From: a bacterium
GTDB lineage: Bacteria > SAR324 > XYD2-FULL-50-16
Length of the DNA stretch: 64,000 bases
Direction: 5' to 3'
NCBI GenBank assembly: GCA_024275165.1
Contig: JAJRZQ010000025.1
Span: forward strand, 50,519-114,518
Shown piece after piece: positions 1 to 7,921 of this stretch (its first letter is position 1; the number at the start of each line of letters is the position of its first letter). The position numbers and the translations under genes are program-made. The notes under the pieces are model-generated. The model saw only the letters and a program-made list of their open reading frames with translations. It was not told the DNA's origin and did not search any database.

Positions 1-331
1 CTAAAGAAACCGCCAGGGCAGAAGCCAACACAGGCTCAGACCCGAAGAGTTGAAAACAGGTCACCCCCACTAAGGCGGAGAAAAAATGCCCTCCCAAAAG
101 GTTTCTCGGTTGGGACAAGGGCGCCTCAATCGCCCCGTAGAGCAACACGGCAGAGGCGCCAAAACTCCCGATAATCATTACCAGGTCGTTGCTGGTCGCC
201 CAATTCCAATGCAAGGCGGCGACACAGGCAATCCCTAAAAAGCTCCCCAACCAGGACCAGAAAATTTCGATTTTAGGGATTCGCGGGGCACTCCGCCCGA
301 CTCCCTTCATTTTTTTTATATACTGCTTCAC
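1..331 (-). CDS. HPP family membrane protein (N-terminal part; runs off the window edge)
   Basis: Not in the ORF track. Manual translation from GTG at 331 (RBS-like AGAGGA upstream): MKQYIKKMKGVGRSAPRIPKIEIFWSWLGSFLGIACV...IIGSFGASAVLLYGAIEAPLSQPRNLLGGH. The SFGASAVLLY...PLSQPRN..GGH signature is typical of HPP proteins. Confidence 0.85.
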   Translation of the reverse strand, partial: MKQYIKKMKGVGRSAPRIPKIEIFWSWLGSFLGIACVAALHWNWATSNDLVMIIGSFGASAVLLYGAIEAPLSQPRNLLGGHFFSALVGVTCFQLFGSEPVLASALAVSL

Positions 332-353: not shown

Positions 354-914
354 CTAGTCCGAGCTCCTCCTCGGCCCCTGACGCACCAATAAAACTCCGG
401 TCCAAAAAACCAGAAACATCAAAAAAACTGGGGCCGCCCACAACATAGCGACCCCGGTAGCCTGTTGTTGTTCTAAAGAAAAGCTCGCGCAAACCTGCAC
501 CGATGTTTGACTTAAAATCAACCCGTACATGCTCCACATGGCGATGCCATAGATTGCCGCGGCAATTTGCACGGGAAAGGCCAAAAGCGGCAAGCTCAAG
601 GCTAGTACCGCCCCAGATATCAAAAGACTCAAATGAGCCAAAAAATCAATCCCCTCTTGGGCTACCGCCAAATCCAAAGAACGAGGGACCATCCAAAACA
701 AAACCCCACCCCAGCCTAAAATCAGCAGACCCAAAGCATTGCCCGGCCCCCAAGAGAGGCGCAAAGGGCTGAAACGCACTCCCACAGCCCCTAAAATGAA
801 AAGCAAGGGGAACTGAATCAGCATCAAGCGACTCATGGAGTCATCCAGGTAGGGATCGAGAGGGGGGAACATCAACAGAGCTACGGTTAGCGCCCAAAAC
901 AATCGGCGAATCAT
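354..914 (-). CDS. Polytopic membrane protein, CtaG/DUF1404-like oxidase assembly factor (orf1 of norSY-senC-type clusters)
   Basis: The track ORF starts at 1055. The likely start is ATG 914 (MIRRLFWALT), which overlaps the SCO stop as ATGA. About 5 hydrophobic segments and a His in LAHLSLL. Confidence 0.6.
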   Translation of the reverse strand: MIRRLFWALTVALLMFPPLDPYLDDSMSRLMLIQFPLLFILGAVGVRFSPLRLSWGPGNALGLLILGWGGVLFWMVPRSLDLAVAQEGIDFLAHLSLLISGAVLALSLPLLAFPVQIAAAIYGIAMWSMYGLILSQTSVQVCASFSLEQQQATGVAMLWAAPVFLMFLVFWTGVLLVRQGPRRSSD

Positions 915-1543
915 AACCCCTCTTCCCGCAAGGCTGCCTGCAACACCTCCCAAGTGGGAACCTCGGCAAAAGATTGCGTGATCAACCCTTGGGGGTTGAT
1001 CAAAAAGGTTCGGTTGGTATGACGAAGCTGACCCTGAAGATCCAACTCGACCCAAGCGCCCATGGCTTTAAGTTGCTCCCAGTAGGCCTCCAGCCCGATG
1101 TCCTGAGGGCTGGCAAGCAGCCATTGCCGAGGCGAGCCATAGCCCTCCCACACCAGACGCAATAGTTTTACTGAATCCTGCTCCGGGTTTACCGTTAAGG
1201 TCAAGAGGGTTAGAGAGGTTTCTTTTTGCTCTTGCAGCTTTTGGTGCAACCCTTGATAAGCTTCGACCGCCAAGGGACAGGAGACCGAACAAGCGAGAAA
1301 ACCAATATTCAACAAATAAAAACGGCCTCTCAGTTGATCTAGGCGAAAGCCCCTCCCCTGATGATCCAAAAACCATAAAAGGGGAGGGAGCCTGGGCAAG
1401 GGCTCGGCAGCTTGAAACACAAATTCGTCGGTGGTAAAGGCCTTAAAACCCAAAGTCCACCAAGAAAGCCCCCCCCAGATCAGCCCTAAGGCAACCAGGG
1501 GGGCGGCTCCCAATTTGAAAAAAAGCCCTAGTTGCCTGACCAT
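911..1543 (-). CDS. senC: SCO1/SenC family copper chaperone
   Basis: N-terminal TM helix, CxxxC motif (ACSVSCP), conserved His in HTNRTFLINPQG, TVNPEQDS motif. Confidence 0.85.
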   Translation of the reverse strand: MVRQLGLFFKLGAAPLVALGLIWGGLSWWTLGFKAFTTDEFVFQAAEPLPRLPPLLWFLDHQGRGFRLDQLRGRFYLLNIGFLACSVSCPLAVEAYQGLHQKLQEQKETSLTLLTLTVNPEQDSVKLLRLVWEGYGSPRQWLLASPQDIGLEAYWEQLKAMGAWVELDLQGQLRHTNRTFLINPQGLITQSFAEVPTWEVLQAALREEGL

Positions 1544-2967
1544 GCCTGCTTGACGCCTTTAAAGACGGCAATGTAATAGGCTATTGCCCCCACCGCGATC
1601 AAAAGGATAAACAAAGAGGCAATGCCTGCGGTCATTTGCCCTACCTGGGCGACCGACTTTATGGGAAGGGAGTCGTAATTCGCCATGCGGCGAGGCACAG
1701 ACTGAATTCCCCCAATAAAGAACATGGCGACAAAGCCAAAGCCGCCCAAAAGCAAGCTCCAGAGGCCAAAGCGAGCGAGCTTATCCTCTTTTGGCCCCAT
1801 CAGGTAATAAAGAACCGCCAAGATCATCAAGACCACACCGAGCAAAAAGTAGGTATGGAAGTGACCGGGAACCCATTGCGTGTTGTGCAAAACTTGGTTT
1901 AAACGAATGGTGGAGTCCACCACGGCGGCAAAACCGCCAACAATCCAACCCATGATCCCCAAGACAAAGGCCAGGGGAACAAAACTCCATTTCATGTCAG
2001 CGCGGTAAATCTGGGCGAAAACCCCAAAAATGGTCACCACGGTTGCCGGCACGGTACTCAAGTAAGAGGCGAACTGCCCGACATACTGCACCCAAACCGG
2101 TTGCCCGAAGTCAAAATAGAGGTGATGGAAGTAAGCGAGAAGAATCAAAAACAAGCTCGCGTTCCAAGAAAGGGCAATGATCTTGTTCATCTTCCAAGCG
2201 CGCCCCGAGTAGAGGGGCAGCATGGCATAAACCGCGGCAACCCCAAAATAAAGGGTGATATTCACTAAAGTATGGCCGAATAAAAAGACCATGTTTTTCA
2301 TCAACAGGGCATCAAACTCAAGCGCCGGATTGAGCCATTTCGCCAAGTAGAGCATGAGCATGATCGCGCCCACAACGGTGGTCAAGGCCCCTGCGATCAT
2401 GCTCACCGAAGTGATCACCACCATGGGGGGCAAGTCTTTTTCTTTGGGGTTTCCACTGAGATATCCCCAGCCCAGCCCCTCGGCAAAGCCATACCTTTTG
2501 GCAATGGCGCGGAGTACATCCAACTGCCCCAAAAGCCAAGCGACCCCTAAAAGCATTACGGAAATCACCGCGGTGCCCACCGCCCATTCGGGCCAAGTCT
2601 TGATAAAAGGCAAAGGATAAAGCACATACCAACCGGCCCCGAAGCGACCGATTAAGGTCGAGAGCATCAACCCCACCACCCCTAAAAGGATCAGGACATA
2701 ATTGAATTTAGCCAGCCCCAAACTCGGTTTCGTGTATTGGGATATGAGATACCAGACCCCAATATAGGCCGCTACATAAAGTACCCCTACCATTCCCAAC
2801 CCGTGCAGGGTCATTAAGGCATAAAAGAAGTCCGGGGGCAGATCCAGGGCTCCTGCTTGGTTGAGGCGCATGGTAAAACCCAAGAGTACCAGCACAAAGA
2901 ATACGACCAACCCCGTAATGGCGTATACAATCGCCAATCTTTTGGTCTGCAATTGATTCTCAGACAT
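1528..2967 (-). CDS. Heme-copper oxidase superfamily subunit I, probable sNOR-type nitric oxide reductase catalytic subunit (NorY-like)
   Basis: About 12 TM helices and all six His ligands (MTLHG, FGHTLVN, YFHHLY, GHFH). The H-x3-Y cross-link Tyr is replaced by Asn. Confidence 0.85.
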   Translation of the reverse strand: MSENQLQTKRLAIVYAITGLVVFFVLVLLGFTMRLNQAGALDLPPDFFYALMTLHGLGMVGVLYVAAYIGVWYLISQYTKPSLGLAKFNYVLILLGVVGLMLSTLIGRFGAGWYVLYPLPFIKTWPEWAVGTAVISVMLLGVAWLLGQLDVLRAIAKRYGFAEGLGWGYLSGNPKEKDLPPMVVITSVSMIAGALTTVVGAIMLMLYLAKWLNPALEFDALLMKNMVFLFGHTLVNITLYFGVAAVYAMLPLYSGRAWKMNKIIALSWNASLFLILLAYFHHLYFDFGQPVWVQYVGQFASYLSTVPATVVTIFGVFAQIYRADMKWSFVPLAFVLGIMGWIVGGFAAVVDSTIRLNQVLHNTQWVPGHFHTYFLLGVVLMILAVLYYLMGPKEDKLARFGLWSLLLGGFGFVAMFFIGGIQSVPRRMANYDSLPIKSVAQVGQMTAGIASLFILLIAVGAIAYYIAVFKGVKQAWSGN

Positions 2968-2988
2968 TTTTTTTCTCCTTTTGGATGC

Positions 2989-3537
2989 TTATAAAACGGT
3001 GAATTTAGAAGTCATGGACTGGTGTCCCATGCCGCAATATTCGAGACAGACTAAAAAATATTCACCCGGTTCATTAAAGGTATAATATAGCTTGGAAGGA
3101 TACCCCGGCATCGCTTGGGTCTGGATCAACAATTGCCCTTGGGAATTGTAGATGGCCAAGCCGTGGTTGACATCTTCGGAGCTGATTGAGAATTGCACCA
3201 ACTTCCCGGCGGGAACAGCGGTGGGGGCAATTTCGGTGGTGCCCGATAAGGCTTTGATCTCGGTGACTTCCCAGAACCACAGCTTTCCCTTTACGGTGAC
3301 CTCGTACGCTGGAGCCGCGCCCTCAGGCGGGAAGTAAGGCAAGCCCCGCAAGGTAGCAAAAAGAGTAATGAGAATGACCAGGGATAAAAATATAAAATAT
3401 TTGCCCCGCATGGCGTAAATGCCTGGGGTGACGGCCTCTGCCCTTTCAGGGCTGCGAGTCGAGCGAATCAACCAAAAGGTGATGCCAAAAATGGTCATCG
3501 TCCCAATGAGGGTTATGAGTCCTGCTTGCCAAGCCAT
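2989..3537 (-). CDS. CuA-containing subunit II (NorS-like) of the heme-copper enzyme
   Basis: Two N-terminal hydrophobic segments, a cupredoxin domain with DVNHG and the complete CuA motif CLEYCGMGHQSM. Confidence 0.9.
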   Translation of the reverse strand: MAWQAGLITLIGTMTIFGITFWLIRSTRSPERAEAVTPGIYAMRGKYFIFLSLVILITLFATLRGLPYFPPEGAAPAYEVTVKGKLWFWEVTEIKALSGTTEIAPTAVPAGKLVQFSISSEDVNHGLAIYNSQGQLLIQTQAMPGYPSKLYYTFNEPGEYFLVCLEYCGMGHQSMTSKFTVL

Positions 3538-3648: not shown

Positions 3649-3671
3649 AAGATGCATTTAAATTACATCTT
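3649..3671. promoter_or_regulatory. NsrR operator (11-1-11 inverted repeat)
   Basis: AAGATGCATTT-A-AATTACATCTT closely matches the established NsrR consensus AAGATGYATTT-N-AAATRCATCTT. It lies between nsrR and the oxidase operon. Confidence 0.85.
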
Positions 3672-3804: not shown

Positions 3805-4260
3805 ATGCGCATTACCAAACAATCCGATTACGCCTTGCGCGTACTCATGTACCTTTGTGCCTATCCAAAACGCTCTTGCACCATCAAGGAGATTTCCGAG
3901 AGCTTTGACATCTCCCAAAACCATTTAATGAAGGTCGTTCAGCATTTGGCGCAGCACGGCTTTGTCAAAACAATCCGGGGGAAAAACGGAGGGATTTGGC
4001 TCGGCCGGCCGGCAGAGCAAATTTTAGTGGGGGAGGTCTTACGCAAACTTGGCGAGGGGGATGATTTATTAGAATGTTTTAGAGAAGAAGACAGCTGTAA
4101 GATATCCCCCCTCTGCGCGTTGAAAAAAATCTTTAACCAGGCGAACGAAGCCTTTTTCAACGCGTTGAATCAATACAGTCTCGCTGACATCATTGGTGAT
4201 CGGGCAGCGATTTCCAACCTGCTGCAACGCTTGCCAAGCCCATGCAAGCTTGAGGCTTAA
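3805..4260 (+). CDS. nsrR: Rrf2-family NO-sensing repressor NsrR
   Basis: MRITKQSDYALR with Asp8, the SQNHLMKVVQHL helix, three Fe-S Cys (ECFREEDSCKISPLC), and an adjacent NsrR box. Confidence 0.85.
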   Translation: MRITKQSDYALRVLMYLCAYPKRSCTIKEISESFDISQNHLMKVVQHLAQHGFVKTIRGKNGGIWLGRPAEQILVGEVLRKLGEGDDLLECFREEDSCKISPLCALKKIFNQANEAFFNALNQYSLADIIGDRAAISNLLQRLPSPCKLEA

Positions 4261-5181: not shown

Positions 5182-7245
5182 CTAAGCCAGGCCTTGGGAC
5201 TTGCGTTTTTCATCAAAGCGCTTGCGCTGCGAGGGGTTCATCAACACCTCATAGGCCTCTCCGATCAAACGGGTCATGCGTTCCGACTCTTCTTTGACCC
5301 AGGCAAAGTTGGAGGTTTGATGTTTGTCGGGGTGATACTCTTTTAGTTTTTCCTTATAAGCCCGTTTGATCTCTTCGGGGCTCGCCTGCGCAGGTAGGGC
5401 GAGCAATTGGTAGTAATCGACAAAGTCGCCCTTTTTAGGGCGATAGGGCTCCGTTTTCGCCTCTTGCTGTTGTTGCTCTTTTTTCTCTTTTTGCGCCTCT
5501 TCTTGTTTTGCCTTGGCCTGTTGCGCTTTTTTACGCTCCGCTTCCGCTGTTTTCGCTGATTCTTTCCTCCCAGTGGGTTTTTTTCTTTTTTTGATTTCCT
5601 GAAAGCGTTGGCTCAGCTCTTGACTCAGTTTTTGCAACTCAAGGGTTAAACCGGAAAAATCCACTCCCTGGACTCGCGCCTTTCGTTGCAGGGCTTCCAA
5701 CTGGGCTTTGGTGGCTTGCCAAGTGGTGACAAACTCCCGTCGGCGGTCTGCCTCCAGGCATTTTTGCAGTTGGTTCGAAACCTGCGAAAAAAGGAGGATA
5801 AAGGCTTTGCGGGGGTCGGTTTGCCTGCTTTTTGTTCCTGGGGCAACAAAGGGACGCCCTGCCTGGAAGGCAAAAGAGAACAGGTGAATTTGCCTGGCCT
5901 TCAAATAGCGCGACCATAAAAAAAGCGCGAGGAGGGCGAAAAGAACCCAGAAAATACCTTGCAGCAGGCCTTTGCGCTCTCGCGCTTCGATCTGGGTTAA
6001 ATAGCGGGTCGCTTCCGCGTCTTTAGGGTACTTGGCCAACAGAGCCTTCAGCAAAACCTTGGCGGTTTCATCGCTCCCCTGATTAATCTGCTCCACCGCG
6101 CTTTTCAGTTTGTTGCTCGCGTCAACCTGGTTGTAAATTTCTCGTTGCAGTTTGCGGCTTAGAGCATAACTCGATGAGCTCAAGGGGACCTGGCCGATAT
6201 ACTTTAAAGCGGCCTGCCAATTTTTATTTTCCGCCTCCACGAAAGCGAGCTGATAATAATCGAGTTCCTCCGGCGTTGCTTTGCCACTGCTTTGAATCAT
6301 CCGTTCCAGCTTGCCGCCATCGTCATAGAGCCCCTCAAACCCCGTATAAAGGCGTTGATTCGCTGTTTGCCTCAAGGGGGCGCTGCGCCCTTGAGGCTGT
6401 AGGTTCTCAATCGAATGCAGGGAATACTTCACCCCTCGTTTTTGTTCTCCCTTTTGGTATAAGACCAAAAGGTTTTCTCCGCTTTCATCCAAGGCCATTG
6501 CTATGGGCCGCTGTCCCTTATGCCCAAGGTTTTGTTCTAGGGCGATCTCTTTTTTTAAGAGGTCCCAGCGGGCGAGGTGATCGGAGGCATCTAAACTGTA
6601 GAGGTTTTGCCCGTCCGGGCTGGCGGCGCCAATGAGGGTCTCTTGGTGTCCTTTTAAGCTTTGGGGGTGTTTTGCGTCTTGGGTATGAATCAGGGTTAAC
6701 TCTTTAGCGCCCTTGAACAGAACGATCAAGCGTCTGTCTTTTAAGGGAACCATACTCCGCACCGGCCTGGGCGGGTCTGCCGTAAAAACAGAGGATTGCT
6801 TTTGATTGTTTAAGTTGATGCTATCAATGCTGGCCCCGCGACTAAAAAAGACCTCGTTCCCCTCTTGGGAAAAACGAGCGTCTTGAATCGCCGGGCCATC
6901 GCTCCGCTGGAGTTGGTAGATTAATTGCGCCCCTGCCAGATCGAGTTCGTAGACCTCCAAGCGCTCTTTAGAGGCAAGGAGCAAACGCGTGGGTTTGCCT
7001 TTGGAAAACTCCACCGCGTTGGGCTGATCTCCAGAGGATTCCCAATGGGTCAACTCCGTCATCGCCCCGGTTTCCATCAGGCTATAGAGGTTGCGTTTCC
7101 CAAAGCGACTCACCTTTAAGAGTTGTTGCCCATCGGGGCTAAAGATAAAAAGCCCTGAGGGGCTTTCTGCCCAGGCAACGGTAGAAAGCGCCCACAACAA
7201 GGTTAGAGCCCAGAAGCTGATTTTAAATTTTTTGCAATTCCACAT
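5182..7245 (-). CDS. Membrane-anchored protein with signal peptide, beta-propeller-like and TPR-like regions, one TM helix, coiled coil and C-terminal J domain
   Basis: Probable start ATG 7245. Signal FWALTLLWALSTVAWA; WD-like repeats (LKGHQETLIGAA...SLDASDHLARWDL); TM GIFWVLFALLALFLW; J domain DYYQLL...IKRAYKEKLKEYHPDK...LIGEAYEVL. Confidence 0.7.
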   Translation of the reverse strand: MWNCKKFKISFWALTLLWALSTVAWAESPSGLFIFSPDGQQLLKVSRFGKRNLYSLMETGAMTELTHWESSGDQPNAVEFSKGKPTRLLLASKERLEVYELDLAGAQLIYQLQRSDGPAIQDARFSQEGNEVFFSRGASIDSINLNNQKQSSVFTADPPRPVRSMVPLKDRRLIVLFKGAKELTLIHTQDAKHPQSLKGHQETLIGAASPDGQNLYSLDASDHLARWDLLKKEIALEQNLGHKGQRPIAMALDESGENLLVLYQKGEQKRGVKYSLHSIENLQPQGRSAPLRQTANQRLYTGFEGLYDDGGKLERMIQSSGKATPEELDYYQLAFVEAENKNWQAALKYIGQVPLSSSSYALSRKLQREIYNQVDASNKLKSAVEQINQGSDETAKVLLKALLAKYPKDAEATRYLTQIEARERKGLLQGIFWVLFALLALFLWSRYLKARQIHLFSFAFQAGRPFVAPGTKSRQTDPRKAFILLFSQVSNQLQKCLEADRRREFVTTWQATKAQLEALQRKARVQGVDFSGLTLELQKLSQELSQRFQEIKKRKKPTGRKESAKTAEAERKKAQQAKAKQEEAQKEKKEQQQQEAKTEPYRPKKGDFVDYYQLLALPAQASPEEIKRAYKEKLKEYHPDKHQTSNFAWVKEESERMTRLIGEAYEVLMNPSQRKRFDEKRKSQGLA

Positions 7246-7921
7246 AATAAACAGGGAGGCCCTGGGATTTGAACAGCAATTCAAATTCAGTGGGAATATT
7301 CTCAATCTCGCTTTGGTGCAGGTCGTGACAAAGGTGAGACACCTCAAACCTAGAGTCGCCCTGCAAAAACTCCAAGCTGCTTTGGAAGTATTCTTGGTGG
7401 TCCGTTTTAAAGACAAAACGACCTTGGGACATTAAAAGCTGGTGAAGGGTTTCTAAAAAAGCAGGTTGGATCAAGCGATTTTTGCGATGCTTTTTTTTAG
7501 GCCAAGGGTCTGGGAAATTGACATGCAACAACTCGACCGAGCCCGGCCTAATCCATTCGGTGGCCACTTCGGCTAGGGAGCGAATCAAGCGTACATTGTT
7601 GATTTCTCCTTTTTTTAATTTTTTCGCCGCAAAGACCAAGCGCTTAAAGCGTAATTCAAACCCCAAAAATCTTTTTTCCGGATACCTTAAAGCGAATTGG
7701 CGTAAAAAATTACCGGAACCGCAACCGAGGTCAACCACCAAAGGGCCATGAAGAAACTCAATATTTTTTAAATCGCTCCGGGCGGATTCCACCCCGTCAA
7801 ACCAAATCAAATCCGCGTATTCAAAAATCCTGGTTGAATAGGGGTTTCGCTCCGGATTGAGTTTAAGTATCTCTGCCGGTTTTCTCAATTTACGAATCGG
7901 TTGCTTTTTTAAGGCGTCCAC
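7223..7921 (-). CDS. trmB: tRNA (guanine-N7)-methyltransferase
   Basis: VDLGCGSGNF SAM motif, FPDPWPKKKHRKNRL, FKTD, TEFE. Confidence 0.93.
   Translation of the reverse strand: MDALKKQPIRKLRKPAEILKLNPERNPYSTRIFEYADLIWFDGVESARSDLKNIEFLHGPLVVDLGCGSGNFLRQFALRYPEKRFLGFELRFKRLVFAAKKLKKGEINNVRLIRSLAEVATEWIRPGSVELLHVNFPDPWPKKKHRKNRLIQPAFLETLHQLLMSQGRFVFKTDHQEYFQSSLEFLQGDSRFEVSHLCHDLHQSEIENIPTEFELLFKSQGLPVYYVELQKI

Follow-up and report, generated by a model that had tools for sequence, protein, structure and literature searches.

The window analysed here is a stretch of 64,000 nucleotides of a SAR324 bacterium (contig JAJRZQ010000025.1 of assembly GCA_024275165.1, positions 50,519 to 114,518). Next to its start lies an operon of five genes that code for a NorS-like subunit II, a NorY-like subunit I, a SenC/SCO copper chaperone, an Orf1-like membrane protein and an HPP-family membrane protein (Table 1); the first four genes are tightly packed. 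The enzyme formed by the two subunits contains a CuA site and almost certainly belongs to the sNOR family of heme-copper enzymes, with an Asn in place of the active-site Tyr of the O2 reductases. By analogy with related enzymes, the reduction of nitric oxide (NO) is probably its main activity. The locus had been noticed in a preliminary description made from the sequence alone; we found all the elements again at their positions on the minus strand, and they were correctly described in every detail.

The six His ligands of subunit I that were reported as kept can all be read (H55, H232, H281, H282, H369 and H371), and helix VI indeed has the sequence FGHTLVN instead of an H-x3-Y motif, with N236 (codon AAT, 2262-2260) four residues past H232. 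The residue next to N236 is I237, so that the protein does not fit an 'Asn-Glu' subclade. The six His and N236 are invariant in 19 relatives of 51-75% identity. When the family profile is aligned with solved A-family oxidases, 'fGHtlvN' falls on 'FGHPEVY', which places N236 exactly on the Tyr. The corresponding column of a MAFFT alignment of 89 sequences contains Tyr in 10/10 A-family and 11/11 B-like proteins and Asn in all 43 proteins of the window protein's group, while eNOR-like proteins have Gln and cNOR/qNOR proteins have Glu. We also used the best 150 representatives of a set of 1.84 billion proteins. Ninety-one of them cover helix VI, and H-x3-N is found in 72 of these, so that the motif is no product of chance; representatives with a Tyr (GHPVVY) show up among the best 150 at 243 bits or less only.

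A compensating Tyr of the type found in the C family was looked for and rejected, as the preliminary description had proposed, the position six residues before the His pair being occupied by Ile275. Tyr279, two residues before the pair, alternates with Phe in relatives. A check of the K-channel region showed conservation of K224, Y240, Y247, S301, T312, D286 and D351. Tyr240 lies one turn of the helix below Asn236 and is present in 39 of the 43 family members, Tyr247 in 41. The sole frequent Glu column of subunit I is position 248, immediately after Tyr247; it holds Glu in 63% of the family and Ala in the window protein. The AlphaFold model of subunit I (predicted local distance difference test, pLDDT, 83.9) gives TM-scores of 0.73-0.83 with A-family and ba3 subunit I structures. 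Two full-length sNOR-family relatives among the representatives (P0157 and P0170, 470-476 residues) have nearly all their metal and heme His ligands replaced and look like degenerate paralogues.

For a phylogenetic placement, we collected heme-copper subunits of 24 genomes that hold a relative and labelled the groups by motif. The tree of 89 heme-copper enzymes was computed with IQ-TREE (LG+C20+F+G4) on 493 columns after removal of the Asn column. Three labels were checked against solved structures of the PDB: L116 is ba3-type (565 bits to 3EH3), L128 is a cNOR NorB (303 bits to 3O0R), and the Tyr-bearing sister group P0163 is at a roughly equal distance to ba3 and aa3. All 43 Asn-type sequences form one clade, with an ultrafast bootstrap value of 100 and a value of 99 in the Shimodaira-Hasegawa-like approximate likelihood ratio test (SH-aLRT), and this clade is present in 100% of the bootstrap trees. 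It includes the window protein and those of the megaplasmids of Ruegeria pomeroyi DSS-3 and Thermomicrobium roseum, and it stands apart from the A, ba3+eNOR, C and cNOR/qNOR enzymes. The true ba3-type proteins L115 and L116 belong to another clade. A grouping with Tyr-containing O2 reductases, which had been named as a ground for refutation, is not seen in this tree.

R. pomeroyi was formerly called Silicibacter pomeroyi. Two heme-copper enzymes of the R. pomeroyi megaplasmid were examined, and Asn is found in the sNOR-like enzyme only, the other one being CcoN. In a published table, adapted from Hemp and Gennis (2008), sNOR is given with N as the active-site residue and is assigned to 'Betaproteobacteria, Silicibacter, Deinococcus, Geobacillus'. 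The assignment to the sNOR family, which had been made from the motif and the gene order, is borne out by the motif, the CuA subunit, the norS-norY-senC-orf1 order, the overall architecture and the clade shared with an sNOR named in the literature.

The other parts of the operon agree with the earlier reading as well. The CuA motif of subunit II is intact (H-x38-CxExCx3Hx2M). Subunit II scores 31.6 bits with Pfam COX2 and 77.6 bits with the CoxB model, far under its cut-off of 147.7, and subunit I scores 203 bits with Pfam COX1 and 97.8 with the CtaD model, whose cut-off is 670. Because the CtaD and CoxB scores are so far below the cut-offs, the two subunits form a divergent heme-copper enzyme rather than a standard oxidase. 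To compare gene contexts, we used the best 80 loci of a genome-contig scan, none of which is from a nitrifier; a plasmid collection added the loci of R. pomeroyi, T. roseum and Parasedimentitalea, with no nitrifier among them. Of the 82 related loci, 66-68 share the order of subunit II, subunit I, SCO and membrane protein genes, as first described; they come from at least six phyla (Bacteroidota, Gemmatimonadota, Spirochaetota, Aquificota, Verrucomicrobiota and Proteobacteria), and the SCO gene is downstream of the subunit I gene in 66 of the 82. Among the best 80 loci, the nearest named genome is a Candidatus Lambdaproteobacteria metagenome-assembled genome (MAG), whose subunit I is 75% identical.

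A region of 267 bp separates the subunit II gene from a divergent gene for an Rrf2-family regulator, and it contains a predicted NsrR operator. This sequence, AAGATGCATTTAAATTACATCTT, is identical at 21 of 23 positions to the ChIP-verified NsrR operator of Escherichia coli ytfE (AAGATGCATTTAAAATGCATCTT), and it matches the 11-1-11 inverted repeat AAGATGCATTT-N-AAATGCATCTT, a consensus of the enterobacterial NsrR type, at 20 of 22 positions. It is the sole site of the 2.69-Mb genome with at least 18/22 matches, the five next-best sites having 17/22, which is about the rate found in shuffled sequence. The Rrf2 regulator carries Asp8 and Cys91, Cys98 and Cys104. The consensus of FNR/Dnr-type boxes is TTGAT-N4-ATCAA, and a similar box is found 33 bp upstream of the centre of the NsrR operator. 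The genome codes for two CRP/FNR-family proteins, one of which has an E--SR recognition helix and is devoid of an FNR-type Cys cluster. Should this box act as a class II activator site, the -10 to +1 region would be spanned by the NsrR operator. A scan for sigma-70 promoters and terminators gave nothing above shuffled sequence.

Upstream of the orthologous operons, the enterobacterial NsrR consensus is absent at 17/22 matches or more. The orthologous intergenic regions contain diverged palindromes with the same ATTT-N-AAAT core, and the two closest relatives keep the 11-1-11 form. In R. pomeroyi, the Rrf2 gene is likewise divergent and the palindrome, centred on ATTT-A-AAAT, is perfect, and in Nitrosococcus oceani nsrR (Noc2967) adjoins senC-norY-norS. 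Genes for Rrf2 proteins are found beside sNOR-family clusters at 14 loci, those for RIC/ScdA-hemerythrin proteins at seven, HPP genes at four in addition to the window and NnrS genes at three. Formate/nitrite transporter genes are present beside sNOR clusters at three loci and at two plasmid loci (R. pomeroyi and T. roseum). The recurrent neighbours thus correspond to a nitrosative-stress and nitrite context, not to an oxidase-biogenesis context.

We then looked at the host genome, which is 98% complete. It codes for just two heme-copper enzymes, one of the A type and the sNOR-type enzyme, and no other NOR-type heme-copper enzyme was found in it. NapA is present (C21:27197-28708; 1314 bits, over the cut-off), together with a NasA-like and NirB-like pair (C47:224278-229958), an adjacent DsrA/DsrB-like pair (C17:157232-158986) and QrcB-like proteins elsewhere. 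Searches of the genome gave no match for nirK, nirS, nrfA or globin/Hmp, and a search for nosZ with PF18764 was uninformative, the control genomes giving no match. From this inventory, the host is predicted to be a nitrate-reducing, sulfur-cycling bacterium that can make nitrite and has no dedicated NO-forming nitrite reductase, no second recognised NO reductase and no recognised NO dioxygenase.

In the mechanism that we propose, electrons of a periplasmic donor would enter at the CuA site of subunit II, which the SCO protein would load, and proceed via a low-spin heme (H55/H371) to a binuclear centre that comprises a high-spin heme (H369) plus a metal bound by H232, H281 and H282. Two NO molecules would be reduced to N2O at this centre, from which the His-Tyr cofactor needed for the four-electron reduction of O2 is predicted to be absent, with N236 in place of the Tyr. 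The NsrR-like regulator, possibly as an iron-sulfur [Fe-S] protein, would repress the operon through the canonical operator until released by NO, and low O2 or NO may further activate it through the FNR/Dnr-type box. Nitrite may be moved by the HPP protein. Since NapA is present and nirK, nirS and Hmp are absent, the enzyme would most likely remove NO that is formed by nitrite chemistry or released by neighbouring organisms. It looks like an NO scavenger, possibly an energy-conserving one, and not like the third step that would complete a chain of denitrification.

The predicted NO reductase activity rests on analogy: none of the sNORs has been purified or assayed to date, and NO reduction is a prediction for the whole family. 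Other observations also weigh against it. The tree was built without the NorY of ammonia oxidizers and without bNOR, gNOR and nNOR sequences, the R. pomeroyi protein serving as the sNOR reference. The published 'conserved glutamate' of the putative sNOR proton path may be absent from the window protein, which has Ala248 in the column that is mostly Glu in the family. The best NCBIfam model for the regulator is NsrR, at 132.7 bits under a cut-off of 182, with RirA near at 125. In addition, without nirK, nirS and nrfA an obvious internal source of NO is missing. In its favour, NO reduction has been demonstrated for bNOR, whose active site has the same Asn, and for eNOR. The cross-linked Tyr is common to all characterised heme-copper enzymes that reduce O2, and its loss is the published criterion for NO reductases.

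The enzyme might instead function mainly as a terminal oxidase at low O2, or as a dual O2/NO reductase, without the covalent His-Tyr cofactor, Tyr240 possibly donating a proton and an electron. We give this reading a minor but appreciable probability. Some of the evidence for it is at the same time evidence against NO reduction as the main activity: Sedlacek et al. proposed a high-affinity oxidase role for the sNOR of Nitrosomonas europaea, whose transcripts increase 2.7 to 10.8-fold under O2 limitation; the FNR-like box upstream of the operon fits such a role; and the genome searches revealed neither cbb3 nor cytochrome bd, so that the host, whose sole other heme-copper oxidase is of the A type, has no recognised high-affinity oxidase. 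The conservation of Tyr240 and Tyr247 also speaks for a low-O2 oxidase, as does the fact that the nearest Tyr-bearing relatives are B-like oxidases. However, the cross-linked Tyr is missing, the operon bears the genome's only NsrR-type operator, which corresponds to an NO-specific signal, the family has nitrosative-stress and nitrite-transport genes as neighbours and no oxidase biogenesis genes, and bNOR reduces NO with the same Asn. That the Asn-type enzyme of this host is a true O2 or dual O2/NO reductase using Tyr240 instead of the His-Tyr cofactor seems improbable to us; if true, it would overturn the rule that O2 reduction by heme-copper enzymes needs a cross-linked Tyr.

It is highly improbable that the binuclear centre carries out a different reaction of nitrogen oxides, such as the dismutation of NO or the reduction of N2O or nitrite. 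Altered-site offshoots of the heme-copper enzymes have been proposed in the literature to dismutate NO or to reduce N2O, genes of nitrite-transporter families (HPP and formate/nitrite transporter) adjoin sNOR clusters, and the activity of the sNOR family is itself a prediction so far. Yet the proposed NO dismutase and N2O-reductase families are relatives of qNOR and cNOR with different ligand changes, the dismutase-like 'HN' proteins and the His-less cNOR relatives are found elsewhere in our tree, and the active site of the window enzyme is the same as in bNOR, whose NO reductase activity has been demonstrated. The probability that the enzyme is a common cytochrome c oxidase of the B or A type, its Asn being due to faulty alignment or to a recent change that inactivated it, is practically nil. 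Relatives go by the name of cytochrome c oxidase in databases, and the fold is that of oxidase subunit I, but the Asn falls on the Tyr in independent hidden Markov model (HMM) and MAFFT alignments, it is invariant in a well-supported clade (100/99) of 43 diverse sequences, and the score with the curated oxidase model is only 97.8 for a cut-off of 670. The two alignments and the tree clade refute this reading.

The presence of sNOR outside ammonia oxidizers, which the preliminary description put forward, holds for this locus; it is not new, as Silicibacter, Deinococcus and Geobacillus were listed in 2008. Murali et al. (2024) found sNOR in 95 NCBI genomes, 344 GTDB genomes and 872 IMG metagenome sequences and called it broadly distributed, and metagenomic denitrification surveys now screen for it as routine. 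Automated pipelines were expected to label this enzyme a cytochrome c oxidase, and they do: relatives are named 'cbb3-type cytochrome c oxidase subunit I' at NCBI, and KEGG places sNOR under coxA, this naming problem having already been published. The locus thus leaves the known distribution of the family and its active site unchanged. What it adds is the regulatory and genomic context around an sNOR operon, and having the genome's sole NsrR-type operator at this operon makes a clean regulatory argument for a role linked to NO. It is also one more well-defined candidate for expression, beside the cluster of the genetically tractable R. pomeroyi. Enzymes of the sNOR type may supply a real share of biological N2O.

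The tree also contained atypical members of other groups. L132 (Gammaproteobacteria MAG, G003:C47, 1307-3739) and L134 (Aureispira MAG, G024:C32, 1314-3758) are qNOR-like proteins of 810-814 residues whose helix VII His pair reads H-N ('SHNFYW'), a signature proposed for NO dismutase-like enzymes; both genomes also hold an sNOR. Four eNOR-like proteins (L119, L120, L125 and L126; ~555-578 residues, GHSSQQ) have a Lys ('GHFKG') aligned with the second His of helix X, the low-spin heme ligand position, which may mean that the heme is ligated differently or that the alignment is shifted. Finally, L135, L136 and L137, of 430-446 residues, from Bacteroidota and Leptospirales, are related to cNOR and devoid of the metal-binding His of helix VI. 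They form a clade of their own (100/97) and may correspond to the proposed N2O-reductase-like family.

Table 1. Genes, ligand codons and predicted regulatory sites of the operon region. Coordinates are positions in the 64,000-nt stretch unless stated.
Feature	Position	Strand	Description
HPP-family membrane protein (nitrite-transporter family)	1-331	-	Clipped by the window start; full gene C14:50310-50849, 179 residues
Orf1-like membrane protein	354-914	-	186 residues, five transmembrane (TM) helices; distant CtaG/DUF1404-type putative assembly factor
SCO1/SenC copper chaperone	911-1543	-	210 residues; CSVSC motif and conserved His; Pfam SCO1-SenC 52.7 bits
Subunit I (NorY-like)	1528-2967	-	479 residues, 12 predicted TM helices; heme-copper catalytic subunit with Asn for the cross-link Tyr
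Codons of H281 and H282 (helix VII metal ligands)	2122-2127	-	
Codons of H232-T-L-V-N236 (CuB/FeB His and Asn replacing Tyr)	2260-2274	-	
Subunit II (NorS-like)	2989-3537	-	182 residues; two N-terminal TM helices and CuA cupredoxin domain
CuA ligand motif of subunit II, H125-x38-C-x-E-x-C-x3-H-x2-M	3013-3165	-	Motif reading
NsrR-type 11-1-11 operator AAGATGCATTTAAATTACATCTT	3649-3671	.	Predicted site, sequence match
FNR/Dnr-like box TCGAT-TTAA-ATCAA	3686-3699	.	9/10 to TTGAT-N4-ATCAA; putative function
Rrf2-family regulator, NsrR-like	3805-4260	+	151 residues, divergent from the operon; Pfam Rrf2 128 bits

The membrane protein encoded after SCO, which the preliminary description had listed, is real and conserved. 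Homologues of 180-215 residues follow SCO at 68 of the related loci, and the Orf1 of the R. pomeroyi cluster is one of them. Its start had been placed at 1055; it is most likely the ATG at 914, which overlaps the SCO stop codon as ATGA and yields a protein of 186 residues that matches the size of the homologues. Among 22 members of this family, 16 have a weak match with DUF1404 and 10 with Caa3_CtaG, the best E-value being 3e-7. The structural model is confident and shows a five-helix fold (pLDDT 95.2), for which no solved structural relative was found at E <= 0.001. The Orf1-like profile gave no significant match with the CtaG-like protein of T. roseum (probability 1.7%). On the T. roseum megaplasmid (L083, 6432-10226), genes for a formate/nitrite transporter and a full-length Caa3_CtaG assembly factor (173.7 bits) come after the sNOR-like pair and replace SCO and the short Orf1. 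This arrangement suggests that Orf1 might be a reduced CtaG-type factor, and we regard the Orf1-like protein as a probable assembly factor of the CtaG type.

The HPP gene begins 22 nt past orf1 on the same strand, and its full product matches Pfam TM_HPP with 204.6 bits. The two closest relatives and two Leptospirales loci also have an HPP gene at this place; the reference for nitrite transport by HPP-family proteins is Maeda (2014). Just outside the window start, on the plus strand, a gene convergent with the HPP gene (C14:48979-50271) codes for a nitronate monooxygenase-family protein of 430 residues; this neighbour is not kept at related loci. Beyond the regulator gene, the minus strand codes for a 744-residue protein (5182-7416) with a C-terminal DnaJ domain (57.5 bits) and a long N-terminal part with weak beta-propeller and TPR matches.

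Comparison with known systems shows which features the window enzyme shares with each of them. The cNOR and qNOR enzymes (NorB) are alike in the predicted reaction only. They are relatives of the C family located on the far side of the tree, in which the aligned residue is a Glu, the FeB site includes conserved glutamates, and heme c or quinol is the donor without CuA; both the motif and the tree position of the window protein differ from theirs. The ba3 oxidase of Thermus thermophilus has a similar fold (TM-score 0.73-0.77, 22% identity) and a CuA subunit, and its ligand numbering, H233/Y237/H282/H283, is near-identical to H232/N236/H281/H282. In contrast, ba3 has the cross-linked Tyr and 13 helices, it reduces O2, and its profile score is only 43 bits; with N236 and in a different clade, the window protein is not a B-family O2 reductase of this type. 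The eNOR of Rhodothermus marinus, which was shown to reduce NO, is likewise a CuA-type, B-like offshoot devoid of the Tyr. However, it has a Gln (GHSSQQ), which is not found at the Tyr position of the window protein, its length is ~555-580 residues, and it belongs to a separate clade beside the ba3-type oxidases.

The bNOR (qCuANOR) of Bacillus azotoformans resembles the window enzyme in its CuA site, its B-type origin, the Asn at the Tyr position and the linked SenC and membrane protein genes. Nevertheless, its subunit I has ~560 residues and 13 TM helices, its subunit II has a single TM helix, it has a small third subunit, and it is restricted to Bacillales, whereas the window enzyme has 479 residues, 12 TM helices, a two-TM subunit II and a proteobacterial-type host, which sets it outside bNOR. 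It has been reported that bNOR and sNOR are not closely related and arose by convergent evolution.

The closest likeness is with the sNOR systems themselves (ammonia oxidizers, R. pomeroyi, Geobacillus, the 'type II' cluster of B. azotoformans and Candidatus Methylomirabilis), with which the window operon shares the H-x3-N motif, a CuA subunit II with two TM helices, a 12-TM subunit I of ~480 residues, and the SCO and five-TM protein genes in the same order. Like the clusters of R. pomeroyi and N. oceani, that of the window has an Rrf2/NsrR gene next to it. The Bacillus/Geobacillus 'type II' cluster described by Heylen and Keltjens, with a 12-TM subunit I, a two-TM subunit II, SenC and a four- to five-TM protein, has the same architecture as that of the window, and Murali et al. 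count it as sNOR. The R. pomeroyi protein belongs to the same clade, yet the two subunits I are just 37% identical, and the window has an HPP gene where R. pomeroyi and T. roseum have a formate/nitrite transporter gene. The window enzyme has Ala248 where most members of the family have Glu, the operator is of the enterobacterial NsrR type, and the host, represented by a Lambdaproteobacteria-like MAG without nirK and nirS, harbours NapA and Dsr-type genes.

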